Source: a virus
Taxonomy: Duplodnaviria > Caudoviricetes
Length of the DNA: 64,000 nt
Virus record (IMG/VR): IMGVR_UViG_2869891414_000007
Coordinates: 17,253 to 81,252 of that record
Direction: 5' to 3' (one strand)
The stretch's first letter is position 1; every line of letters starts with the position of its first letter. The translations under genes were made by a program, and so were the position numbers. The notes under the pieces are model-generated. The model ran no database searches, had not been told where the DNA came from, and saw only the letters and a program-made list of their open reading frames with translations. Shown in pieces: positions 5,185 through 62,153 of this stretch.

Positions 5185-5578
5185 CCCGGAACGGCTGAAA
5201 ATGTTTGTTGATGGCGGGCGCATTGTCTCAACGTTAGCCCCGTCGCTCTCTTTTGAAAATCAATATACGCTGACGCTGTTTATTGAGGATTTTCCCAGTG
5301 ATGTTGATTACCTCTTTGTGCCGATTCTGGCATGGCTGCGCGAGCATCAACCGGACATCATGGCAACAGAAGAGAAGCGCCGCACCGGCTTTATTCATAA
5401 GGTCGATGTGATTAGCGATGTGCTGAGTGATATCCGTATCGACCTGCAACTGACTGAGCGGGCCATTGTGAAAGAGGTTGACGGTGCATTGCATGTTAAC
5501 CACGCGCTGGAACCGGCGTGGCCGGGTACGCCAACACGACCAACAGCCATCTACTTTAACGGCGAAGTGATCCCATGA
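5123..5578 (+). CDS. gpR: tail completion protein R
   Basis: MLKPKLLRQAL, WLREHQPD, IDLQLTER. Confidence 0.93.
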   Translation: MLKPKLLRQALTDSLQLFQTNPERLKMFVDGGRIVSTLAPSLSFENQYTLTLFIEDFPSDVDYLFVPILAWLREHQPDIMATEEKRRTGFIHKVDVISDVLSDIRIDLQLTERAIVKEVDGALHVNHALEPAWPGTPTRPTAIYFNGEVIP

Positions 5579-6024
5579 ATGAGCTGAAGCCCTTTGATGA
5601 TGCATTGGCCGGGCTGATTGCCAGTCTCACGCCCAAGGCGCGCAAAGCGCTGGCGGTGACGGTTGCAAAGCGCCTGCGGGCCAGTCAGCAACAACGCATC
5701 AAACGCCAGCAAGCGCCCGACGGCACCCCGTATGCCGCGCGTAAATCTCAACCGCTGCGTAAACCCAAGGGTCGGATTAAGCGGGAAATGTTCGCCAAGT
5801 TGCGCACCGCGCGCTATATGAAAGCCAACAGTAGCTCTGATGAGGCGGTGGTTGAGTTTGCCGGGCGCGTGGAACGAATGGCGGCAGTGCATCATTTTGG
5901 CCTGCGTGACCGCCCAAACGTATACAGCAAAGATGTGCAGTATGATGAAAGGCCGTTGTTGGGGTTTGATAAGAAACTAATTGATAGTATAGAAAAAATT
6001 ATTACATCCTCTTTTACAAAGTAA
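5575..6024 (+). CDS. gpS: tail completion/virion morphogenesis protein S
   Basis: QQAPDGTPY, MFAKLRTARY, HHFGLRD, ERPLLGF. Confidence 0.93.
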   Translation: MNELKPFDDALAGLIASLTPKARKALAVTVAKRLRASQQQRIKRQQAPDGTPYAARKSQPLRKPKGRIKREMFAKLRTARYMKANSSSDEAVVEFAGRVERMAAVHHFGLRDRPNVYSKDVQYDERPLLGFDKKLIDSIEKIITSSFTK

Positions 6025-6061
6025 TATTGTGACTTTTATTGTTCGCTACCAGCGAATTTAG

Positions 6062-6090
6062 TTGACCATTTGCGAACTTTGCTCTATTCT
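6062..6090 (+). promoter_or_regulatory. sigma70 promoter of the retron operon
   Basis: TTGACC-17 bp-TATTCT; predicted start about 6097. Confidence 0.65.
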
Positions 6091-6096
6091 AAATTT

Positions 6097-6558
6097 AACG
6101 TTACTGAAGAGAGAATCCGCCGGTTAGACCTGAGTAGTGATATTTACTACTTGTGGAGGATTTAGATCCTCTGTTTTTTTGCGCTGCCCTTGTGCTGTCC
6201 ACGGTGCTGCTACGAAGCTTCCCATGGCATGTTGTAGTGTATAGGCGTACTGCGTACTGATCGTGTTGGCGACATCACGATCAGATTGAATAGGGTTCAC
6301 TGCCAAAAACTCTCATTTCCTGATTATGGCGACCTAACAGCAATTCTGCTGTTAGTTATCAGGAATAAAATTTATGAAAAATAGTAACGCGTTTTGGCAG
6401 GCACTTAAGAAGAATGACACTAAAAAGAAGAAGCGGAAGCAAAAGCAGAAGCTTTGGAATATTGTAAAAGTACTGGTGAGAGCCGGTCTGTGTGTTTACA
6501 AACTCCTTAACTTCTTCTTTGGTGATAATGATGCTTAAGTGTGCCCTACCTTCAGTAA
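6097..6558 (+). ncRNA. retron msr-msd-like structured RNA (extent inferred), possibly enclosing the small ORF
   Basis: Hairpins agtagt/actact (~6133-6151), gaggat/atcctc (6156-6171), ctgatcgtg/cacgatcag (6257-6284), nested stem 6300-6400; 9-bp inverted repeat ttactgaag (6101-6109)/cttcagtaa (6550-6558); upstream of a retron RT. Confidence 0.6.
6374..6538 (+). CDS. 54-aa small basic/amphipathic protein, candidate retron effector (SP)
   Basis: MKNSNAFWQALKKNDTKKKKRKQKQKLWNIVKVLVRAGLCVYKLLNFFFGDNDA; AGGA RBS at 6361; shorter than any ORF in the supplied track, which omits it. Confidence 0.75.
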   Translation: MKNSNAFWQALKKNDTKKKKRKQKQKLWNIVKVLVRAGLCVYKLLNFFFGDNDA

Positions 6559-6569
6559 AGAGGTGATTT

Positions 6570-6887
6570 ATGATTAACCGAGCATTAAAAACCATCAGGC
6601 TATTCCATAACATAAAACAATCTGAACTTGCGGATAAGCTATGTATTTCAAAATCATACTTATCAGAGCTTGAATCAGGAAAAAAAACAGTCTCATTTGA
6701 TATATTAGAAAAATATTCTAATAATTTTGACATTCCAGTTTCATCACTGGTTTTTTTTGCTGAACGAATTAATGAACCGGGTAAAGATACAATTCCTGAA
6801 AAATTCAAAACTGTTTTTGCAGATAAAATACTTAAGATAATGGAATGGAGCATAGCGAGAGATGGCGAAAAAGAAAGGGAGAATTAA
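6570..6887 (+). CDS. XRE-family helix-turn-helix protein, retron accessory
   Basis: LKTIRLFHNIKQSELADKLCISKSYLSELESGKK; SD gaggtg; overlaps RT start by 26 nt. Confidence 0.92.
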   Translation: MINRALKTIRLFHNIKQSELADKLCISKSYLSELESGKKTVSFDILEKYSNNFDIPVSSLVFFAERINEPGKDTIPEKFKTVFADKILKIMEWSIARDGEKEREN

Positions 6888-7794
6888 TACTAAAGGCAAG
6901 TCTTATAGTATTAATGATAGCGCTTTATTCAATATTCAGAGTAAAAACAAGCTTGCGGAAGTATTACTGACAAACTTAGATAACATAAAAAGCTTATTAT
7001 CTAATGACAATTATATTGTTTTTGATAATACTAATGAAGATGGTAAAAAGCGGACTATTCAAACCCCATCAGATAAACTTAATGTTGTGCATACAAGAAT
7101 AGCGAGTTTACTATGCCGTATAACTCAACCAGAATATGTCCATTCAGGAATAAAAAATAAATCTAATGTATCCAATGCCAGAAAACATGTAGGTACACAC
7201 CCTGTATTAACGTCTGATATACGCTCATTTTTTCCTTCGACATCTAAGCGCCAAGTCTTCAATTTTTTTAATAGGAAATTGAAGTGCGCTGCTGATGTAT
7301 CAGACCTCATGGCGGAATTGTGTACGTATGCGAACCATATACCTACAGGCAGTCGAATAAGTATGCCTTTAGCATTCTGGGCAAACTATGACATGTTTAA
7401 TGAAATGAACATAATTTCAAATAAATTAAATATAACAATGACTGTTTATGTTGATGATATTACTTTTTCTGGCAATGCTGTTAATAGACTGTTTCTTCAT
7501 AAATGCAAGAGAATAGTGGAAAAGAATGGCCATGTTTTACATCCAAAGAAAACAGCCCTCTACTCTGCTAAAGAGCCTAAGACCATTACAGGTGTTATTG
7601 TTCATGAAAATGAAATTAAAGTAAGAAATTTACATTACAAGAAAATTTATTTTGATTTAGATGCGTGGAAGAAAACTGACGACGCCATAGAAAAAGAAAA
7701 CTTAAAAAACAAGGTTCTTGGTCGAATGCATTCTCTTTCTACTATTAATGAAAAATTCAAAGATAAAGCACGAAGCTTTCGGTCCATTGATTAG
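6862..7794 (+). CDS. retron-type reverse transcriptase (type VI-like)
   Basis: Region X NARKH, DIRSFFPS, YVDD catalytic motif, region Y ITG; 310 aa, no fused domains; AT-rich. Confidence 0.92.
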   Translation: MAKKKGRINTKGKSYSINDSALFNIQSKNKLAEVLLTNLDNIKSLLSNDNYIVFDNTNEDGKKRTIQTPSDKLNVVHTRIASLLCRITQPEYVHSGIKNKSNVSNARKHVGTHPVLTSDIRSFFPSTSKRQVFNFFNRKLKCAADVSDLMAELCTYANHIPTGSRISMPLAFWANYDMFNEMNIISNKLNITMTVYVDDITFSGNAVNRLFLHKCKRIVEKNGHVLHPKKTALYSAKEPKTITGVIVHENEIKVRNLHYKKIYFDLDAWKKTDDAIEKENLKNKVLGRMHSLSTINEKFKDKARSFRSID

Positions 7795-7830
7795 CTGCAA
7801 AACTTTTCATAACAAAAGTCTTGTTGATGT

Positions 7831-7848
7831 TGTGTAGTACCTGATACA
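7831..7848 (+). promoter_or_regulatory. Ogr site of late promoter PV
   Basis: TGT-N12-ACA (tgtgtagtacctgataca) upstream of gpV. Confidence 0.7.
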
Positions 7849-7894: not shown

Positions 7895-8536
7895 ATGAAT
7901 ACTCAAACCCAAATCACTGAAATTCTGCGCCTGCTGCGCAACCTTATCCGTATTGGTACGGTGGCTGAGGTCGATCTCGACCAAGCCCTGTGCCGTGTGG
8001 CGACAGGGGACAATACCACCGGCTGGTTAAACTGGCTGACGCTTCGCGCCGGTCAATCACGTTCATGGTGGGCACCGTCTGAGGGCGAACAGGTATTGAT
8101 ATTGTCCCTCGGTGGCGAACTCGACACCGGCTTTGTGTTGCCGGGCATTTTCTCTGATGACTTTCCGCCACCGTCGGCCTCGGCCAATGGCTTGTATATC
8201 GCTTTTCCTGACGGTGCCACGTTGCACTATGAGCCGGAAAGCGGCGAGTTGCTGGCAGATGGAATCAAAACAGCGGTTATCAATGCCAGTGAATCGGTGA
8301 ATGTTACCGCCCCCAATATCACCTGTACCGCCTCGGTGAAAATCCTTTTAGACACGCCCGAAGTTGAATGCACTAACAACCTGACCACCGCCACCTTGAA
8401 TGTGATCCAAGGCGGCAAGATGAGTGGTGATATTGAGCACTCAGGCGGCCAGTTCTCATCCAATGGCGTGGTAGTCGATAAGCATGACCATGGCGGTGTG
8501 TTGCGCGGCGGGGATTATACGGAGGGGATTAAATGA
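7895..8536 (+). CDS. gpV: baseplate spike protein V
   Basis: NLIRIGTV, WWAPSEGEQV, terminal H-x-H iron-binding motif (KHDHGGV). Confidence 0.95.
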   Translation: MNTQTQITEILRLLRNLIRIGTVAEVDLDQALCRVATGDNTTGWLNWLTLRAGQSRSWWAPSEGEQVLILSLGGELDTGFVLPGIFSDDFPPPSASANGLYIAFPDGATLHYEPESGELLADGIKTAVINASESVNVTAPNITCTASVKILLDTPEVECTNNLTTATLNVIQGGKMSGDIEHSGGQFSSNGVVVDKHDHGGVLRGGDYTEGIK

Positions 8537-18965: not shown

Positions 18966-19011
18966 CTAACGACATACTCATACTACTTTGTTTTACTTAT
19001 ACTATTTTCCA

Positions 19012-19066
19012 TGGTGCCCGGGGCGGGACTTGAACCCGCACAGCCATAAGCCGAGGGATTTTAAAT
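19012..19066 (-). pseudogene. leuZ: 3' fragment of tRNA-Leu(TAA) (anticodon loop to CCA); prophage att junction
   Basis: Minus strand ATTTAAAATCCCTCGGCTTATGGCTGTGCGGGTTCAAGTCCCGCCCCGGGCACCA matches the leuZ 3' half; 5' half absent. Confidence 0.92.
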
Positions 19067-20409: not shown

Positions 20410-20844
20410 ATGGGAGCCAGCTATTCCATTGAGGATTGTGATCTTCAGATACTTATCCTTGTTGACGAAAAAACTGCGCTGCAAGGGGAATCAACGGGGA
20501 TTTTCGCGATGGATAATCACCTGGGGTCTGGAAGTGATATTCAAGGTAGCACACAACTAGTAACTTATGCCGGAAGAGGCGACAAAATTTATTGGCGAGC
20601 TATGTTTATCAACCCTAACACAGTTGATGCGCAGTCCATCGCCTCAATAGGGATCTCGTCGGTGGGAAACTCTCCTGCATGGGGATATAGCGGTCAACCA
20701 GAAATCGCCTTTGATAGTGACTCAAATTTTAGTGGCGAGGCGCAAGTGGCAGGGCGTTATACTTATGAGTTATTGATTAATATTGTAAAGAGTAATGGCG
20801 AGGGTGCAATTTTAAAAACAACTCTTGGTCTAACAGTAACTTGA
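20410..20844 (+). CDS. hypothetical beta-rich protein, weak AidA/PixA-like resemblance (paralog 1)
   Basis: Clean ORF with RBS, AT-rich; ILILVD...GIFAMDN...QGSTQL...GDKIYWRA. Confidence 0.7.
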   Translation: MGASYSIEDCDLQILILVDEKTALQGESTGIFAMDNHLGSGSDIQGSTQLVTYAGRGDKIYWRAMFINPNTVDAQSIASIGISSVGNSPAWGYSGQPEIAFDSDSNFSGEAQVAGRYTYELLINIVKSNGEGAILKTTLGLTVT

Positions 20845-20882
20845 TTTTATTCTTTTCAATAATTTCATAGGAATAAAATAAT

Positions 20883-21395
20883 ATGAACGATAATAACTTA
20901 CAACAGCACCCCGAATTAATACCAGGTGATTTTCGTGGTATTAATAATCCCGAGACGATCATACGTATTTTTGTTGATACAGCTTACGTTGCCGCAAGCG
21001 GCGGTGGTGCAATCACTGGACCAACAAGTAAGGGTATTTATGTGATCGATAATAGAGGGAGTATCGGTAGCCCGCTCGAAGCTCGCATACCTGTAAAAAC
21101 ATATGTTCATCGTGAGGACTACATCGGCTTTTATATCTCAGCAATAGACCCAACCTTAACAGATCCTGATTTAGAAGAGACCCTTACAATTGAAGGGTTC
21201 ACGATATTGGGCGGTAATTTATTTGGCAGTGCAGGTTATCCTGTTCGTCGGGAAAGAGATGATAATTATTGGATTGCGCAAGCCGTAAATGCCTCACCGG
21301 CTACAACCTATGAGGTCCATTGCAAACTATTGACACAAGGGCTCACTCCTCAAACAATTTACTTTTCATTCAATTCCATTATTAGCACAACATGA
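20883..21395 (+). CDS. hypothetical protein, paralog 2 of 20410-20844
   Basis: IRIFVD...GIYVIDN...TY.HREDYIG...FGSAGYP aligns by eye with paralog 1. Confidence 0.7.
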   Translation: MNDNNLQQHPELIPGDFRGINNPETIIRIFVDTAYVAASGGGAITGPTSKGIYVIDNRGSIGSPLEARIPVKTYVHREDYIGFYISAIDPTLTDPDLEETLTIEGFTILGGNLFGSAGYPVRRERDDNYWIAQAVNASPATTYEVHCKLLTQGLTPQTIYFSFNSIISTT

Positions 21396-21413
21396 TAATC
21401 ACTGGAAGGAAAA

Positions 21414-22001
21414 ATGGAAGATACTATTGATTTATCAGCACGCCCACCAGAGAAGTTTAAAATTGACGAATTCGAAAAATACTTTGAGATGCAGAAGCAA
21501 AGCCAGTGGTGTTGGATAGCAACTGCAGTCGCCGTGGGTAATTTTTATGAGTCATATACAGTAAGGCCCAATGACAAAACAACAAAGTGGGATCAAATAG
21601 ACACATATAAAAAACTAAAGTCGACTTGTCATACGGTAACAACGGCGACTCCTCTTATGTCATTAGGAACTAAAGATTTATGCAACGAGACCGGAAATCC
21701 ACAAACTTCGTTGCAGCACGTTTTTTGCTTCGTAAATAAATATGCTAATTCTACGATTGAGCTTCCCGAAATAAAGAGAATAATAGCTACAGGTAAACCG
21801 GTTATAGTTGGTTTAAAAAAAATGAAACAGGATGGGACCCTATCTTATCAGGGGCATGTTATAACTCTATATGGATATGATGGGCCAAATACGTGGTATG
21901 TAGGTGACCCACTAGAAGGTATCAAAACATTATTACTTAACAAGGTAACTGCTGCAAATCTTGCTGCCTCGGAATTTTTCATAACAAAGAAACCTGGTTA
22001 A
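21414..22001 (+). CDS. papain-like cysteine peptidase (C39/C70-like)
   Basis: QKQSQWCW (oxyanion Q and catalytic C), GHVITLYGYD (H), YVGDP (D); RBS ggaagga. Confidence 0.8.
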   Translation: MEDTIDLSARPPEKFKIDEFEKYFEMQKQSQWCWIATAVAVGNFYESYTVRPNDKTTKWDQIDTYKKLKSTCHTVTTATPLMSLGTKDLCNETGNPQTSLQHVFCFVNKYANSTIELPEIKRIIATGKPVIVGLKKMKQDGTLSYQGHVITLYGYDGPNTWYVGDPLEGIKTLLLNKVTAANLAASEFFITKKPG

Positions 22002-22043
22002 CCTCTATTTTCAGCTAACGGCATACGCGAAAGAACTCACATA

Positions 22044-22075
22044 AATAGACCGGGCAATCAAGCCCGGTTTTGTAT
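22044..22075. terminator. terminator copy 2 of the ccgggc-aat-aagcccgg family
   Basis: ccggg-caatcaag-cccgg followed by T-rich tail. Confidence 0.75.
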
Positions 22076-22235
22076 TTATGCTTCAGCTCAATAAACATCC
22101 CTGCCCACCCATCACTCTATTTTCAGAACATTCGGAGCTTAAATCATTAGGAGTAGCCAGATAAAACACCATATGCTTGAACGGAAAACAATGCCGTATT
22201 ATCGGATGAGTTAATAAACATAGGGAGATAAAGAA

Positions 22236-23054
22236 ATGGATGCGACGTTGCTTTCAAGGATGCGGTCAGGTGGAAGGATTACAAGCTGGTCAGAAACGAT
22301 GGTGAACCTGGAGGCCCATAAGCTGATTAATATCGCGAACACGCTGTCCGCCTCCCACCTTAGTGATAGTCTGACCCAAATGAATTTTATCCAAGAAATA
22401 AAGGAAGTTGTTGAGCAACAGTTCGCTGCCGCGCGGCGTGCTAAATCGGACGAAGAGTGTATGACCTGCATACAAAGTCTGAGAGCGGAGACGGAAAGCC
22501 TTCAGGCGCAGGACAGGATGTTGCGGATGGAAACCGCGAAACTTTACGCCAAAGTGGAGTTCGTCCGGGAAAATAATAAAATTGTTGGGTATGTCATTTC
22601 GGCTGTAAATGTGGTGTTGTCAGGACTTGAAATGGCGGTCGGTTTCACACTTATAAGTTCAATGACCCCCTTGGGGGTTCTGGCTGGAGCTGTACTTGTG
22701 ATCGACAGTGCCAATGGCATAAGCAAGGAAATAGCACATTACGCAATGGATAATAAAAGCTCTGAAGGGCTGGTTGCTGATGTGTCCATGTCGGTTGCCG
22801 AGTTTATGGGATTTAGTCGTAATAATGGGCTGGGTGTATACAAATCAGTATCACTTGCGGCAAATGCATATAGCATCTTCGGCCTACTTAAGCGCCCAGA
22901 AACATGGCGGTTATTTCGTTATATTCCCACTGATTATTATCGGAAAATCAGCACCATGAGTCGCCCAAAGTTAACAATGAAAATAGTAGGATATGGCGTT
23001 AAAGCTAAAGTCATATTTGATTTAATGTCTATCACTGATTCAGTACAACGTTAG
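22236..23054 (+). CDS. DUF4225-like protein
   Basis: Gly/Ala-rich hydrophobic core, C-terminal PETWRLFRYIPTDY typical of DUF4225 (from recall). Confidence 0.75.
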   Translation: MDATLLSRMRSGGRITSWSETMVNLEAHKLINIANTLSASHLSDSLTQMNFIQEIKEVVEQQFAAARRAKSDEECMTCIQSLRAETESLQAQDRMLRMETAKLYAKVEFVRENNKIVGYVISAVNVVLSGLEMAVGFTLISSMTPLGVLAGAVLVIDSANGISKEIAHYAMDNKSSEGLVADVSMSVAEFMGFSRNNGLGVYKSVSLAANAYSIFGLLKRPETWRLFRYIPTDYYRKISTMSRPKLTMKIVGYGVKAKVIFDLMSITDSVQR

Positions 23055-46932: not shown

Positions 46933-47661
46933 CTATTTGTCCCCTCCCGGTTTTGGATATGGGAGAGGTTTAAACAGCTTCGTGTTGAGCCGCTTTCTGG
47001 CCCGCTTATTAAGAAACTTGATATAGCGGAACTGGGTAAATTTATGTGCGGTAGCCCGGTGAAAATTGGCCTGCAGATGCAAACCGCGCGCCCCTGCCTT
47101 GCTAGCCTTAGTGGTTAAAGCAATCTTGTGGTACCACTCGCCATCTAACTCATAAAACGTGCTTTGATGGCTACCCACATAATCAAAATTACTGGCCTGA
47201 TACACCACGCCGAAGCGACCGCACCGCTCATCAGCAAATGTCTGCACCCACTCAACGCTGGGGTGAAGTAATTTGATGGTTTTGAGCGCATAGCTGATCG
47301 CCCGTGATTCGGTATTGGTCAGCATATCGTCATGCACCCACAGGCGGTTCAATTCCATATATTGCCGGTTGCCGGTTCCCTCAACCACTCGCCCGCCACT
47401 ACTGGGGTTCATTGCATAGCCCCATTGCATAACGCCAACCAGATCGCGCCCGGAGAAGATCCCCAGATGCAAATATGAGTTGTTCACTATGCGTTTGCTG
47501 TAATGGAAGTGGATGATAACCAGACGGGCCAACCAGACGGGGATTGTAGCGACATGCAGATCTGAACATCCGTACCCCACGGTTACACCGTCATAAACTA
47601 CCGGTTCAGGCTTACCCACGGCGCGGGATGCATTTTTGTAACTTAATTTTTTCATGGTCAT
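46933..47661 (-). CDS. mom: Mu Mom-like DNA adenine-modifying GNAT protein
   Basis: [61 protein letters not shown] closely match Mu Mom. Confidence 0.93.
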
Positions 47662-49507: not shown

Positions 49508-50236
49508 TTAAATAACTCTAAATGCATAATCACGCTTTATCTTTTCATATTCGTTTTTGCAGCTGAACCAAAGTTCAAAAATATCAAAAATAAAATTAAG
49601 AAATTCTTTTTCAAGAGAAAATAAACTATCTATATTCATATCTTCTTCGATGGGAAGTCCGAAAGACTGACCAAGTAACACGAATTTCCCTCTATATTCC
49701 GTATGTTCTGGATCAATATATACCCCTTGAACATCCTTCGAATTTTTAGACTTAATGAATTTCAAGAAATCTGTCACCAAAGACTTACCTTTATCATTAA
49801 TACCTAGGTTCGTTTTGGACTCATCAAAAATTGAACGGTATAATCTTTTTTTATTTACATCGGAAAACCATTCATCTTTACTGGCGGGACATTCTTTTAA
49901 ATATGCATAAAAGTCCCTTTCATTATTTATTCTATTAGTAATGTGTGAGTTGACAACGGAGAGACTGTAGTTTTTACAGACCACGCAGAAAGCAAAAACA
50001 GGAACTAAAACAAGAGAGTACTTCATTAAATTTATTGGTAAAGAGAATATTTCTCCTGCTGTCTCAAAACACTTAGGTTCAAAACAAAACTCAATCAATC
50101 TATTATTGTAAATGTTAACCGCTGAGGTAATTGATAAAACTAACAGCACAACCAGTGCAAGCAATGAGATAATGGTAATGAGAGTCACGCCGCCATCAAT
50201 AAATAAGAGATAGCACTCTTTTTTTTTCTGCTTCAT
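49508..50236 (-). CDS. retron Ec48-family two-TM effector
   Basis: Two TM helices flanking FCFEPKCF; N..DFY.YL; ATGA overlap with the RT stop. Confidence 0.85.
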   Translation of the reverse strand: MKQKKKECYLLFIDGGVTLITIISLLALVVLLVLSITSAVNIYNNRLIEFCFEPKCFETAGEIFSLPINLMKYSLVLVPVFAFCVVCKNYSLSVVNSHITNRINNERDFYAYLKECPASKDEWFSDVNKKRLYRSIFDESKTNLGINDKGKSLVTDFLKFIKSKNSKDVQGVYIDPEHTEYRGKFVLLGQSFGLPIEEDMNIDSLFSLEKEFLNFIFDIFELWFSCKNEYEKIKRDYAFRVI

Positions 50237-51480
50237 CTGTTCGGCCTTACTGAAATCAATCTAGCTCTAAATTGCTTAGCTTCTTCTTTATATATTCGTC
50301 TTAAGACGCTTAATCTAAAGTGAGCTTGGTAGTATCTGCGTTTGTAATTGTCAGTTGCAGGTTTACCTGTATAATCCCTTTGAATATTGGAGATGACTCT
50401 ATTAAGACGCTTAATTTCATCATGATCAGGTAGTGGCTCGCAATGCTTATTTAAAACCTTCCTCAAATCATTATATTTTACGTAACCAACTCTCTTTAAT
50501 TTAGTTATCTTACCTTTAACAGAATAATATGCTTTATGATAAGATTGCCTCATTCTCACATCACTCCTGTTATACCCCACCCTAGCAATTTGATATACTT
50601 CATCAGTTATTTTCATACACTCACTTTTTGTAAATCGAGGCTTATCCTCATCAATACATACTCCATGTACTTTATAACCTTTTGCTGCTACGGTTGATTG
50701 GATACTAGACTTCCCCTCATTTATCGTTAGTCCCTTTTGGGTAATCATCGCCTTAACACGATCATCGGCAAACCTGAAATTATTTTTATCTAATTTGCTA
50801 ATCGTTATATCGTCTATTAATCGCGTATATCTGAAGCCAAGGGACTCTAGATATTTTACAAGTTGTGGTTCTATATTATAAAAGTAAAGATTGGATAAAA
50901 AGGTGCTTGTTGGTGCTCCCTGGGGAACTGTACCATTGACAGTAGTTAACTCTGTCAAAACATCAGATACTTCATCCGAGAAGTTAAAAAAGACTTTATA
51001 TATATCACGTACACTATATGTATTTATACTCGGAAAAAAATTCGATATATCAACTTTTATTAGAATTTTTGCTTTGCAATGAACTTCGGCACAGCGAATA
51101 TAATCTCTTGGATTTTCCTTGTCTGAAATAGAGCCAAAGAGATAATGAGGAAACAAAACTTTATTAAATATTTTATTATTTACCTTTCTCAAAATAAACT
51201 TTATTTTTCTGTTAGGTGCATGAAGTAATCTTTTACCGCCACTTTTTTTATTTATCTCTTTTTCCGTATAAAAACTGGCTACACCTCGGGTAAGTATGTA
51301 ACTTAGATCCTCTTTTGTGATAGATAAAAGGCGAAGAAGACTATCTACATTCTGAATAGGTGTAAAATTACTTGGTAAGGTAGGAGTGTATGATTTCACG
51401 AGTGTATAAGTCTCATCATTGATTAGAGAAAAACTAGCGTCCTTTCGGCCAGACCGGGCAGTCGCATCCCAGGGGTACAA
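50233..51480 (-). CDS. retron Ec48-like (type IV) reverse transcriptase; true start may be GTG at 51399
   Basis: FPHYLFGS, RDYIRCAEVHC.AK..IKVDISNFF, YTRLIDDITIS, KVHG all parallel the Ec48 RT (LVDD-type). Confidence 0.92.
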   Translation of the reverse strand: MYPWDATARSGRKDASFSLINDETYTLVKSYTPTLPSNFTPIQNVDSLLRLLSITKEDLSYILTRGVASFYTEKEINKKSGGKRLLHAPNRKIKFILRKVNNKIFNKVLFPHYLFGSISDKENPRDYIRCAEVHCKAKILIKVDISNFFPSINTYSVRDIYKVFFNFSDEVSDVLTELTTVNGTVPQGAPTSTFLSNLYFYNIEPQLVKYLESLGFRYTRLIDDITISKLDKNNFRFADDRVKAMITQKGLTINEGKSSIQSTVAAKGYKVHGVCIDEDKPRFTKSECMKITDEVYQIARVGYNRSDVRMRQSYHKAYYSVKGKITKLKRVGYVKYNDLRKVLNKHCEPLPDHDEIKRLNRVISNIQRDYTGKPATDNYKRRYYQAHFRLSVLRRIYKEEAKQFRARLISVRPNR

Positions 51481-56815: not shown

Positions 56816-58679
56816 ATCGGGATAGGGGCTGATCTCACAACCAGCCTCCTCCCACACCACCGTACATACGGGTCCGTATACGGCGGTTCGGTTATGTTGA
56901 TCGTCGCCTTCCTATAACTCTGGCAGGCCCAGTCTGACGAACAGGTTATTGGGAAGTGCTATGTTCAGCGCCGGGCTACAGCTCACCCGCCACTGTTTAT
57001 GGCAACTTCCCACCGTCTGCGCCGAGAGGTCTTTGCTAACCCCGCGATTGTGCAGCTCTTTATAACGCTTGCCGCCCGTTTTCCACTGTTTCCAGAGGAC
57101 ACTCCGCAGCCTGCGCCTTATCCACCCGTTCAGCTCTCTTATCAGCGATGGCCACTCGTTCAGCCTGTAGTAGCTTTTCCAGCCCGTCATATATCGCTTT
57201 AACGGCTCGATTAGCTGCTCCAGGCTTCTGCCCGTGTTACGTCCCGTCAGTTCCCTTATCCGCGTTTTGAACCGCTTCACCGATCCCGGCGACACCACGC
57301 ACCACACTTTCCTGCCCCTTATGAAGCTGTAACCCAGGAACTTACGCGACTCCGGATGCGCCACTGCGCTCTTTTTCGCATTCACCTTCAGCTTCAGTTT
57401 ACGGCTCAGCCAGTGCGTCAGCCCCGCCATCACACGATTGCCTGCACGTTCGCTTTTCACATACACATTACAGTCGTCTGCATAACGGGCGAACTTCAGG
57501 CCGCGTTTCTCCAGTTCCTTATCGAAGTCATCCAGCAGCAGATTCGATAACAACGGCGACAGCGGGCCGCCCTGCGGCGTCCCTTCTGTCACCGGCCTTA
57601 CCAGACCGGCTTCCATCACGCCTGCATTCAGGAACCTGCGGATAAGTGACAGCACCCGTTTATCCGACACCCGTTTCGCTATCCGGCTCATCAGTACATC
57701 GTGGTTCACCCGGTCGAAGAACTTCTCCAGATCGAGATCGACCACCCAGTGATACCCGGACCCAATATATTCATGAGCCTGTTTCACAGCCTGATGGGCA
57801 GAGCGCCCGGGGCGGAACCCGTAGCTGCTGTCGCTGAACGACGCATCCCACTGCATCTGCAACACCTGCATCATCGCCTGCTGGATAAAACGATCCACCA
57901 CCGTCGGGATACCCAGCAGACGTTCGCCGCCGCAGGGTTTCGGGATGGTCACTCTTCTTACAGGGGATGGGCGATAGCTGCCGGACAGCAGTTGCGCTTT
58001 CAGTTCGGGCCAGTGGTGTTTCAGGTACTCCGGCAGTTCGCTTACGCTCATGCCGTCGGCTCCCGCCGCACCTTTATTGGCCTTCACTCTTTTCAGGGCT
58101 TGCCTGAGATTGACGGGTTCACAGATGGCTTCCATCAGCCACGCTGTTGACGACGGACTTTCTCTGGTCGTCGGTGCCTGCCCGGTTTCAGCCCCCCGGG
58201 AACCGGCGTCCGGGGCTTCACCCCTTCTTCGGGCTTCAGGGCCGCGATGCGTTTTCTGCTGCATGACCGTTCAGAACCTCCGCTGATACTCGTCACTCAT
58301 TACCGTTCGGGCCTTCAGACGTCACGTCCTACTATGCCCTCTGCTGACTCCTGTCCACCGGTCAGCGCACCTTACGATGCACTCAGTTCTGAATACAGAA
58401 CGCCGGACAGGCCTCCCGGGGTAAGCTCAGCCGCTTTCACCACACACCTGCCCAATCTACCACCCCGGCTCTTGATGGTTATGGCCTTCGCAATCACATG
58501 CTTGCTCCGCCAGTCGGGTAGGCCTTATATCGGGTTTCTGTCCGTCAGGTCATGGTTTTGCTCCACGCTTCCTTCAGACCCCGCCTCACGACGACGCCCT
58601 TGCGCTTCACTAGTCCTTCGCCACCATCAGGCTGGACAGGGGACTTTCACCCCCGAGCTGCTGAGCATGCCCGGCACAC
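56816..58679 (-). mobile_element. group II intron, bacterial class C (IIC), apparently full length (1864 bp)
   Basis: 5' GTGTG at 58679; domain V gaaccgccgtatacgg...gtacggtggtgtgggagg with CGC triad; domain VI ending CCCGAT; inserted 4 nt after a terminator U-tract. Confidence 0.93.
56912..58264 (-). CDS. ltrA: group II intron reverse transcriptase/maturase, no endonuclease domain
   Basis: R.LGIPTVVDR, SYGFRPGRS, GTPQGGPLSPLL.N, RYADD, maturase WIRRRLR. Confidence 0.96.
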   Translation of the reverse strand: MQQKTHRGPEARRRGEAPDAGSRGAETGQAPTTRESPSSTAWLMEAICEPVNLRQALKRVKANKGAAGADGMSVSELPEYLKHHWPELKAQLLSGSYRPSPVRRVTIPKPCGGERLLGIPTVVDRFIQQAMMQVLQMQWDASFSDSSYGFRPGRSAHQAVKQAHEYIGSGYHWVVDLDLEKFFDRVNHDVLMSRIAKRVSDKRVLSLIRRFLNAGVMEAGLVRPVTEGTPQGGPLSPLLSNLLLDDFDKELEKRGLKFARYADDCNVYVKSERAGNRVMAGLTHWLSRKLKLKVNAKKSAVAHPESRKFLGYSFIRGRKVWCVVSPGSVKRFKTRIRELTGRNTGRSLEQLIEPLKRYMTGWKSYYRLNEWPSLIRELNGWIRRRLRSVLWKQWKTGGKRYKELHNRGVSKDLSAQTVGSCHKQWRVSCSPALNIALPNNLFVRLGLPEL

Positions 58680-58683
58680 ATGT

Positions 58684-58704
58684 AAAAAAACCCACCGAAG
58701 TGGG
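58684..58704 (-). terminator. Rho-independent terminator forming the intron target
   Basis: cccac-ttcg-gtggg followed by T7 on the minus strand. Confidence 0.85.
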
Positions 58705-58827
58705 CTTCTTTACCCCGGGTCACCGACCAAAGTTAACCGGGAATTGCTAACGGGGACCAACCCGTTAACAGAGGCAAGACCAACGGCTTACGCCATCGAC
58801 CTTAAAACTAGTATATCAGGAGTTGCT

Positions 58828-59454: not shown

Positions 59455-61656
59455 ATGACTGTATTTATTTGTTTATTCGAGCCGAAAAAAGCGGCGCTCA
59501 AAAATGGGGCTATACCACTTGTTATTGCTCTGGAAGCCATAAATAAGAAAATGGCATCGGCACTGGCCATCGGTAAATTGTGGGAGGCCTACCCCGCCGC
59601 CGGTGATAACTTTACAGATCCAAAAATCTGTGAGGATACTATCGGGCAACCGCGCCCGGTTGTGGGTGATTTCGATGAGCAGTTCGCCCAGGATAATACC
59701 TTTGATGGCAAGGTGTGGACGCCAAATAGCGTGGCATCGCCAGAGGATGAGGATGATAACGACGGCGACGAACAGGGTGATAATTCAGACTTAGTGAACT
59801 ACGCCAAGCTAGGGATTGATGTCAAAGTTGGCAAGATCCTAATGTATGAGTTGCGTGACATCGATACGCACGAACTATCGCTAGTGTATGACCTGATTAA
59901 CGACGACGAGGGTGACGCCGGGCTACGTTCAATTATAACGGCATTGGCAGGCATACCGGCTATCGGCGCGATGTATCAGGAGTCAGTCAAAGAGCTGATC
60001 GATGCTATTAATGTGAAGTTCCCTAAAATCCCTCAATTCCCTGAGGTACAGAAGTTTGCCCAAAAATGGGTTGATGAACCTAATAAACGGGACGAATTAA
60101 CCGGGGCGAAAAAAGTTACCCGCATAACCACACCTGATCCGGATGCGCCAATTAAGCGCGGCTTTGATCACACCTATAAAACCCTCGATCTCGAAGTTGC
60201 CCTCGCCTTAGTACCTGCAGATTTTAATTGCTGGGAAATCCACTCAGCAGAAATGAGGCAGGCAAAAGAGCTGATGGACAGTAATGATGATGCTTGGCGT
60301 AAATGGTCAACCGAATTGCGTGTTCGTAGCGATGCGTTATCTATCCCGCGTGAAACCATCTTTGAGATGATCCGCGCCGGTAAAGAGAAACCTATTTTCC
60401 TAACCGATGCCGCCGCCCGAAAAGAATTTATCTCACAATGTATCGCCGTCAAAGGGCCGCGGCCCGCGGTTAAAAATTTAGGTGACGGTAAGTTCTCGAT
60501 TGATGGTCTGGTCGGTGGTGAACCCCAACCGGCGGCAAACAGTGAAACAAAACTAGCCCTGGTTGCCAATGCTGAGCCAGAAACCGAAACAAAACCGCCA
60601 ATTATTGCAACAGAACCGGAAAACACTGCACAGGAAGCTATCACCGATAACGCTGCTCAGCAGGCTAAAGATACGCTGGATCAGTTAGGTTATGGCGTTT
60701 ATGCCTCAGTTGATGAGAAGCTGGCAGAAGTTATTGAGGCGGCGCAGCAAAGCGCCGTTGCTACCGTTGAAGTTACTGCTGACGAATTCCAACACCGTGC
60801 AGGCTTGATTGAACGGGAGATTGCGCAGAAGTCCCCTGAAGAACAGGAAAACCTGCATATCTGGAAATCGGTACAACGCACAGATCCACGCTTTACCAAA
60901 CCTGTAGAGGGTGCGGGATATGTTGCTACCAGCATTAACGCTGAATATATGTTTATGCGGGCCACGGAAGTATTCGGCCCCATTGGTGAGGGCTGGGGCT
61001 ACACCATTCTTGAAGATAAAATGCTTTCAGGCGCACCAATGTCCGAGGCGATTTACGACGATAACAAAAAATACATTGGTAATCGGCTTATTCGTGATGC
61101 CGATGGCACATTGCTATGCGAACAAAATCACTCGATCAAAATTCAATTCTGGTACTCAGTTGAGGGGGATGTGCGCGGTGAGATCGAAAGCTACGGAGCC
61201 ACCCCTTACATGTATAAAACCAATAAAGGAATTAAGGCAGATAGCGAGGTAATCAAAAAAAGCCTCACTGACGCTATTAAGAAAGCGCTATCAATGCTGG
61301 GCTTTAGCGCCGACGTATGGCTCGGAATGCACGATAACCCCGAATATCTGGCAGAAAATAACATCGAGTTCGCTATCAAAAATGCCAGTGAAAAAGCCGG
61401 TGACACCGTTCGCCTGCGCAAAGAGCTGGATGAGAAATTAACCAAAGTCGGCAATACCATTTCGAATGCCGTCACTACCAATGAAGTGAGTAAAATATAC
61501 GGCACTATTGCCCGCGAAGTTGATGTCCATCGCAAAGATGCCGAAGCCAAAGCCGATCACCAACACGCCAATTACCTCAAAACCCGATTGCTTGCATTAC
61601 ACCGCTTAACTGAAAAACGGGTTGCCGAACTTACCGCACAGGAGCAATCAGCATGA
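59455..61656 (+). CDS. RecE/ExoVIII-like N-terminal region fused to a Rad52/Sak-like single-strand annealing domain
   Basis: N-terminus and YKTLDLEVALAL resemble Rac/Gifsy RecE; C-terminal RATEVFGP.G.GWG and KKSLTDAIKKALS.LG are Rad52-like. Confidence 0.72.
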   Translation: MTVFICLFEPKKAALKNGAIPLVIALEAINKKMASALAIGKLWEAYPAAGDNFTDPKICEDTIGQPRPVVGDFDEQFAQDNTFDGKVWTPNSVASPEDEDDNDGDEQGDNSDLVNYAKLGIDVKVGKILMYELRDIDTHELSLVYDLINDDEGDAGLRSIITALAGIPAIGAMYQESVKELIDAINVKFPKIPQFPEVQKFAQKWVDEPNKRDELTGAKKVTRITTPDPDAPIKRGFDHTYKTLDLEVALALVPADFNCWEIHSAEMRQAKELMDSNDDAWRKWSTELRVRSDALSIPRETIFEMIRAGKEKPIFLTDAAARKEFISQCIAVKGPRPAVKNLGDGKFSIDGLVGGEPQPAANSETKLALVANAEPETETKPPIIATEPENTAQEAITDNAAQQAKDTLDQLGYGVYASVDEKLAEVIEAAQQSAVATVEVTADEFQHRAGLIEREIAQKSPEEQENLHIWKSVQRTDPRFTKPVEGAGYVATSINAEYMFMRATEVFGPIGEGWGYTILEDKMLSGAPMSEAIYDDNKKYIGNRLIRDADGTLLCEQNHSIKIQFWYSVEGDVRGEIESYGATPYMYKTNKGIKADSEVIKKSLTDAIKKALSMLGFSADVWLGMHDNPEYLAENNIEFAIKNASEKAGDTVRLRKELDEKLTKVGNTISNAVTTNEVSKIYGTIAREVDVHRKDAEAKADHQHANYLKTRLLALHRLTEKRVAELTAQEQSA

Positions 61657-62153
61657 GCAACACCGCAATCGCATTAGCCGCAGACCTTTTTAAACTGCAA
61701 CAGTTGGTTGAGTCCTCCGAAGAACTCACGCCAGAAATGATCGCCGATACGCTAGAGGGTTTAGAGGGTGCTTTGGGGGATAAGCTAGATGCAACCTATG
61801 TCTTTGTCCGTAATTTAGAGGGGCAGGCTAAAACCTGTGATGAAGAGGCGAAACGCCTGGCTGACCGTAAGCGGTCATTTGAGAACCGGGCTAAATCGAT
61901 CAAACAGTATGTGCTCAGCTGTTTATTAGCCGCAGATATGAACACGTTGAAAACGCCGTACAACACATTCACCGCGCGAAAAGGTGTGGCCAGTGTGGTG
62001 ATCGACAACGAGGATTTGTTGCCAAGTGAATTGGTGACAGTGCAAACCATCGTAGCCCCCGATAAAAAAGCCATCAAAGAAGCCATAGAGAATGGCGTTG
62101 ATGTTAAAGGGGCGCATATCGAGATAGGTAGTCGTAGCCTGCAAGTTCGCTAA
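61653..62153 (+). CDS. siphovirus Gp157-family protein
   Basis: DTLEGLEG, EEAKRL..RK, PDKKAIKEAI.NG..V.GA.I...SL.VR. Confidence 0.88.
   Translation: MSNTAIALAADLFKLQQLVESSEELTPEMIADTLEGLEGALGDKLDATYVFVRNLEGQAKTCDEEAKRLADRKRSFENRAKSIKQYVLSCLLAADMNTLKTPYNTFTARKGVASVVIDNEDLLPSELVTVQTIVAPDKKAIKEAIENGVDVKGAHIEIGSRSLQVR

Follow-up and report, generated by a model that had tools for sequence, protein, structure and literature searches.

A type VI retron of the Retron-Vpa2 lineage in the gpS-gpV gap of a Yersinia P2-like prophage, with a predicted translational switch

Type VI retrons were described as a system in 2020 and dissected in 2025-2026. In Retron-Vpa2, the small protein (SP) stays untranslated within a hybrid RNA (hyRNA) of ~470 nt until phage recombination proteins let msDNA accumulate, and no msDNA is detectable on gels before this trigger (10.1101/2025.10.22.683967). 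A baseline absence of msDNA is thus compatible with a Vpa2-type retron, because there msDNA becomes gel-visible only after the trigger. The same authors proposed, without proving it, that the retron DNA controls toxin translation and that a repeated loop sequence is the target of the msDNA (10.1101/2025.10.22.683967). In Retron-Sen3, SP and ssDNA are made constitutively and the HTH protein restrains SP (10.64898/2026.04.27.721009). SP is the toxin in both type VI retrons studied (10.1101/2025.10.22.683967; 10.64898/2026.04.27.721009), and the Vpa2 paper called its killing mechanism elusive.

Here we analysed a 64,000-nt stretch of DNA (the window, to which all coordinates refer). Positions 6062-7794 almost certainly hold an intact type VI retron, consisting of a promoter, a hyRNA of ~460 nt and genes for SP, HTH and RT. 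The retron occupies an AT-rich insert (6025-7830; GC 30-42% versus ~52-62% in most flanking phage genes) between gpS and gpV of a P2-like tail operon. Three ORFs lie on one strand, at 6374-6538 (54 aa), 6570-6887 (105 aa) and 6862-7794 (310 aa), and the latter two overlap by 26 nt. The 310-aa protein matched the PADLOC model RT_VI at 3.4e-104, 60 orders above the next best model (1.4e-40). Retron RTs are marked by NAxxH in region X, the catalytic YxDD and a VTG-type triplet in region Y (Mestre 2020, PMC7736814); all three are present as NARKH (residues 105-109), YVDD (196-199) and ITG (242-244), and the ITG triplet recurs in Hafnia and Morganella homologues. The 105-aa protein is of the Cro/C1 type (PADLOC HTH_VI, 6e-36; PF01381) and is 44% identical to the Vpa2-like HTH; its length and its overlap with the RT gene agree with the 91-110 aa and the position upstream of or overlapping the RT that characterize type VI HTH proteins. 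A gene for a small helical protein precedes the HTH gene, as in other type VI retrons, and a structured RNA is contiguous with it. A 164-aa antisense ORF (6359-6853) without any Pfam match was regarded as merely shadowing the AT-rich sense genes. The ORF coordinates, the RT motifs and the AT-rich insert were all as originally predicted, with Pfam identifying the flanks as gpS and gpV, and type VI membership was borne out by the PADLOC profile matches and the RT phylogeny. The locus is a further example of type VI retron and no new class; what it adds is comparative support for a loop-repeat switch and the gpS-gpV gap as a variable cargo slot.

Vpa2 and Sen3 were both compared through stand-ins. 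The Vpa2 stand-in is a V. parahaemolyticus locus (L010/L011) in which the residues that the Vpa2 paper mutated can be recognized: K15, I39, F43 and F45 in its 55-aa SP and R7 in its HTH. By these sequences it is likely Vpa2 itself, although its RT motif reads YVDD where the paper has YADD. The Sen3-like stand-in, L146, which we infer to belong to cl2075, has a 78-aa SP that matches PADLOC SP_VI at 1.8e-26. The query RT is 49% identical to the Vpa2 stand-in and 25% identical to L146. In a small tree of our own, it formed one clade with the RT of the Vpa2 stand-in (support 96/94), and its nearest relatives are retrons of Serratia, Hafnia and Morganella (50-53% identity). The query also shows the features of the Vpa2-like ('Large') group, namely a short SP outside the named SP clusters, direct repeats in the loops and a predicted sequestered RBS, and neither its SP nor the Vpa2-like SP matched SP_VI. 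The features of Sen3-like cl2075, a three-helix SP of 75-79 aa with an N-terminal extension and an RT within that subclade, were absent from the query, whose SP lacks the ~25-aa extension and has no profile similarity to the L146 SP. Within type VI, these sequence comparisons place the locus on the Retron-Vpa2 side and not on the Sen3-like side. In the same tree, the SP_VI-type RT of L146 grouped with RTs of HTH-less retrons (98/98; rows L146 and L150-L153), not with the Vpa2-like lineage, and type VI did not form one clade, unlike in the Sen3 paper; sampling in our tree is sparse and long branches are present. In three of the HTH-less loci (L151-L153, Enterobacterales), the RT is ~395 aa long and follows an ORF of 67-69 aa (or longer, as called) whose product has a hydrophobic C-terminus.

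Retron-Vpa2 and the query share the order hyRNA-SP-HTH-RT, an SP of 55 versus 54 aa with a hydrophobic C-terminal helix, a transcript of ~460-470 nt, a predicted sequestered Shine-Dalgarno (SD) sequence, a 7-nt repeat in the msd and riboregulator loops and membership of the same RT clade. They nevertheless differ considerably: identity to the stand-in is only ~49% for RT, 44% for HTH and 31% for SP, the stand-in has R7 in its HTH where the query has K7, and its SP carries a net charge of +7 versus +11 in the more lysine-rich query SP. Vpa2 is located on a chromosomal island beside rpoD, whereas the query lies in a prophage tail operon. Type VI retrons borne by P2-like prophages of E. coli and Klebsiella, the group of Retron-Eco12, share the architecture and the type of carrier, with RTs 44-47% identical to the query; unlike the query, they occupy the gpA-portal hotspot (34 loci; PMC9122126). 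Retron-Sen3 of Salmonella enterica (cl2075) differs in its 79-aa SP with an N-terminal extension, its constitutive ssDNA, its post-translational control and its distant RT.

The SP gene is the shortest of the three ORFs and encodes the predicted toxic effector. An ATG ORF of 44-58 aa ending 25-60 nt before the HTH gene was present at the same place in 79 of the 80 related loci that we could compare (those fetched that had an RT at least 43% identical, an HTH gene and enough upstream sequence; 50 distinct leaders). This positional conservation, together with the toxin role of SP in the two type VI papers, supports the original proposal that SP is the effector, and the defence role proposed for the retron is likewise supported, by analogy, through family membership and those two papers. 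Consistent with the predicted composition, 11 of SP residues 1-27 are K or R, and the hydrophobic moment reaches 0.58 from residue 29; across the homologues, the N-half is basic and the C-half amphipathic and aromatic, even though sequence identity is 18-44% outside Yersinia. With a best 19-residue hydropathy of 1.5 and a predicted structure of a single long helix (pLDDT 82.5), SP looks more like an amphipathic helix than like a clear transmembrane segment, and membrane activity is a plausible guess. No PADLOC or Pfam model matched the query SP, and 0 of 35 family members were matched. The ORF had also been described as hidden from annotation, and this part did not hold: the same sequence has been called as a gene on 311 contigs, and phage vB_YenM_56.17 lists it under UNA05921.1, although gene callers missed homologues in some records. 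SP ORFs are unannotated in the type VI retrons carried by a Mu-like Shewanella phage (L003, MZ568827.1), Pasteurella phage Pmp14 (L006, OR544131.1) and Burkholderia phage KS5 (L007, NC_015265.1).

A sigma70-like promoter, TTGACC-17-TATTCT, is predicted at 6062-6090 (+), with a transcript start near 6097. The sequence is where the original prediction had placed the retron's own promoter, but the site is not significant alone, since 8 such sites were found versus 7.3 expected by chance. Its position lends it support: of 33 loci, the query among them, 20 have a sigma70-like site 250-320 nt ahead of the SP start, and no other 40-nt bin has more than two. The hyRNA, comprising the msr/msd leader and the SP coding sequence, would span 6097-6560 (+), its ends being placed by inference, and is close in length to the ~470 nt reported for Vpa2. 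The leader folded better than all shuffles (z -3.1), in agreement with the hairpin-rich leader noted originally, and so did the leader with the SP gene (6097-6570, 100 shuffles, z -4.0). An Rfam search of the insert returned chance-level matches only and thus no Rfam family for the leader RNA.

Within this RNA, on the plus strand throughout, two short msr-like hairpins (6132-6174) are followed by a U run, as they are in the Vpa2-like locus. The second of them (6153-6174) resembles a terminator; we rejected it as an operon end, since the Vpa2-like locus carries the same feature inside its transcript. A long irregular stem-loop (6181-6250) is the predicted msd template by its fold and by analogy with Vpa2. 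The terminal msd hairpin (6257-6284), which displays the first copy of the loop repeat, TGGCGAC, at 6267-6273, has two-sided changes in 7 of 7 pairs among 33 loci. The GGG arm at 6291-6299 pairs with a CCC arm at 6540-6548, just past the SP stop, as a candidate a1/a2-like priming stem; in 23 of 30 loci this pairing is better than with shuffled tails (p<=0.1), and it is conserved and not lineage-specific. A perfect 9-bp pairing between 6101-6109 and 6550-6558 was also tried as the a1/a2 repeat and rejected, the cognate partner being best in 1 of 32 loci when cognate and non-cognate partners were compared. Another leader arm (6300-6308) pairs with SP codons 7-9 (6392-6400), with two-sided changes in 8 of 8 pairs and 98.9% of cells paired across 33 loci. 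The covariation score of this stem together with the msd hairpin was 0.71, versus 0.26 for shuffled and at most 0.21 for slid partners (33 loci). Pairing of the leader with SP codons would constrain the RNA, which may be why W-Q or Q-Q is conserved close to the N-terminus of SP.

The next hairpin (6317-6365) is a putative riboregulator, predicted to sequester the SP SD (AGGA, 6361-6364), and its internal loop contains the second copy of TGGCGAC (6327-6333). The folding model gave the SD an unpaired probability of 0.01, and the SD is predicted to be paired (unpaired probability <0.3) in 27 of 31 loci. The 7-mers of the two loops change jointly, to GGACGAA in the Vpa2-like locus, TGGTGAC in L079 and GTGCGA in L078. 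Over all pairs they agree at 114 of 165 variable positions compared with 95+-4 for mismatched pairs, a statistic that ignores relatedness and in which the script's choice of a wrong second loop in six rows lowered the observed agreement. In the model, the SD stays closed (0.01) if only the 7-nt loop is freed, while invasion of the stem raises its unpaired probability to 0.48; the 7-nt repeat alone may therefore not suffice.

The P2-like prophage that carries the retron belongs to Yersinia: the cluster names point there, and Y. aldovae, the only match in a single-protein search of GTDB genomes, has an RT that is 100% identical. The prophage looks complete from its sequence: upstream of the window are ORFs that match the integrase, replication, portal and terminase genes of vB_YenM_31.17/56.17, and the att core of vB_YenM_31.17 has its match at ~19010-19065. 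The retron is flanked by the tail completion gene gpS (5575-6024, +; PF05069, 1.7e-33) and the baseplate spike gene gpV (7895-8536, +; PF04717, PF18715). A TGT-N12-ACA element at 7831-7848 (+) is, as we assume from the late promoters of P2, probably the Ogr-binding site of the late promoter pV. The same locus occupies the same slot in the inducible Y. enterocolitica phage vB_YenM_56.17 (OM046627), with an RT 99.7% identical and with SP and a 290-nt leader identical to those of the query; its three genes are annotated there as hypothetical protein, transcriptional regulator and retron-type RT. This phage differs from the query prophage in integrating at tRNA-Ile, whereas the query has the att core listed for vB_YenM_31.17. 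The paper on this deposited phage never mentions the retron (PMC9224151). A naturally phage-borne, intact Vpa2-type retron is common in Yersinia, as its SP on the 311 contigs indicates.

Among sister phages, the gpS-gpV slot is empty in vB_YenM_201.16, and in 06.16-2 and 31.17 it holds reverse-strand genes of 353-354 aa unrelated to the retron, which marks the insert as dispensable cargo. The divergence between sister phages begins within the gpS 3' end, the last ~15-20 gpS codons differing among phages with different cargo, and stops at the gpV start, which suggests that cargo is exchanged by recombination in the conserved flanks. The two slot fillers (L139:880-1941, 353 aa, and L141:852-1916, 354 aa, both on the minus strand) matched nothing in Pfam or PADLOC and are candidate defence genes. 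P2 itself has its non-essential orf30 between gpS and gpV. Type VI retrons with RTs 50-53% identical also occupy the slot in Serratia fonticola and in an IMG/VR group. The gpA-portal hotspot of P2-like phages has been described by Rousset et al. (PMC9122126); our literature search found no description of the gpS-gpV slot as a defence hotspot. We would put at even odds the combined proposition that the gap is a little-described slot for defence cargo, used by type VI retrons of at least three lineages ~50% apart (Yersinia, Serratia fonticola and the IMG/VR group), and that the loop repeats, which vary jointly, act as the switch from msDNA to mRNA itself. If so, the compact Yersinia locus would allow the Vpa2 riboregulator hypothesis to be tested cleanly. 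How retron DNA switches on toxin translation could be probed directly by swapping the loop-repeat variants that occur in nature.

The intact genes, the family membership, the conserved SP ORF, the conserved RNA fold and the mobility of the cargo are directly supported here. By analogy with Vpa2, we favour, with a probability of about 0.7, a retron of the Vpa2-like lineage that is self-promoted cargo of a Yersinia P2-like prophage and is governed by a Vpa2-type translational switch. RT, HTH and hyRNA would form a complex, phage recombination proteins would trigger msDNA accumulation, msDNA would unlock translation of the SP toxin, and SP would cause abortive infection that protects the lysogen population against other phages. 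The RT clade, the SP ORF, the covarying stems, the joint loop repeats and the paired SD agree in favouring such a switch. The behaviour of the SD when only the loop is freed, the neglect of relatedness in the loop-repeat statistic and the YVDD of the stand-in count against it, as does the post-translational control of Sen3. Were the query controlled as Sen3 is, SP would always be made and neutralised as a protein by HTH, msDNA would be constitutive and inhibition of RecBCD would free SP. A paired SD is compatible with such control, because the SD of Sen3, for which it was shown, is likewise predicted to be sequestered (10.64898/2026.04.27.721009), and loss of HTH is toxic in both Vpa2 and Sen3. 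We nevertheless consider Sen3-type control unlikely in view of the distance of the query RT from that of L146, the 54-aa SP with neither extension nor profile similarity to its L146 counterpart, and the two-loop repeat, which is a Vpa2 feature.

The retron could be aimed mainly at temperate phages that are co-resident or superinfecting, the adjacent lambdoid-type prophage being one example, and less at lytic phages generally. Lambda Red-type operons do trigger Vpa2 and Sen3 (10.1101/2025.10.22.683967; 10.64898/2026.04.27.721009), and genes for a 733-aa exonuclease and a Mu Gam-like protein lie in the adjacent prophage at 59455-62153. However, no annealing protein was identified, near-identical retrons are found in many Yersinia genomes and in the inducible phage, where the neighbouring prophage is not in evidence, and the defence provided by Vpa2 is broad against lytic phages (10.1101/2025.10.22.683967), so that a mainly temperate target seems very unlikely. 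It is more improbable still that the locus is a silent or decaying retron that hitch-hikes without giving defence. H-NS can silence AT-rich cargo, and some cluster members are shorter, possibly as truncations or at contig ends; the three ORFs and the catalytic motifs are all intact, however, and alleles with RTs 96-97% identical keep identical HTH proteins, mostly conservative SP changes and 1-3 leader changes.

The window also contains other elements. An AT-rich cluster between the two prophages (20410-23054) comprises two ORFs of no known family, a C39-like peptidase (21414-22001) and a DUF4225 protein (22236-23054), and a PADLOC search of it gave no matches. The second prophage carries a Mom-family DNA modification gene (46933-47661, -; PF25680) and a second retron, of type IV (Ec48/Eco6-like; 49508-51480, -), with an RT at 50233-51480 (RT_IV, 3.5e-91) and an overlapping downstream 242-aa ORF (2TM_IV, 9.6e-18). 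Each of the two adjacent prophages thus has a retron of a group that responds to RecBCD or recombination proteins, and the exonuclease and the end-protection protein that follows it at 59455-62153 are candidate triggers for either. The early region of the second prophage further holds a group II intron (56816-58595, -) with Rfam domain matches and a 450-aa RT (56912-58264), and a match to the isrB sRNA above the Rfam gathering score (58685-58773, -) adjoins the 5' end of this intron.
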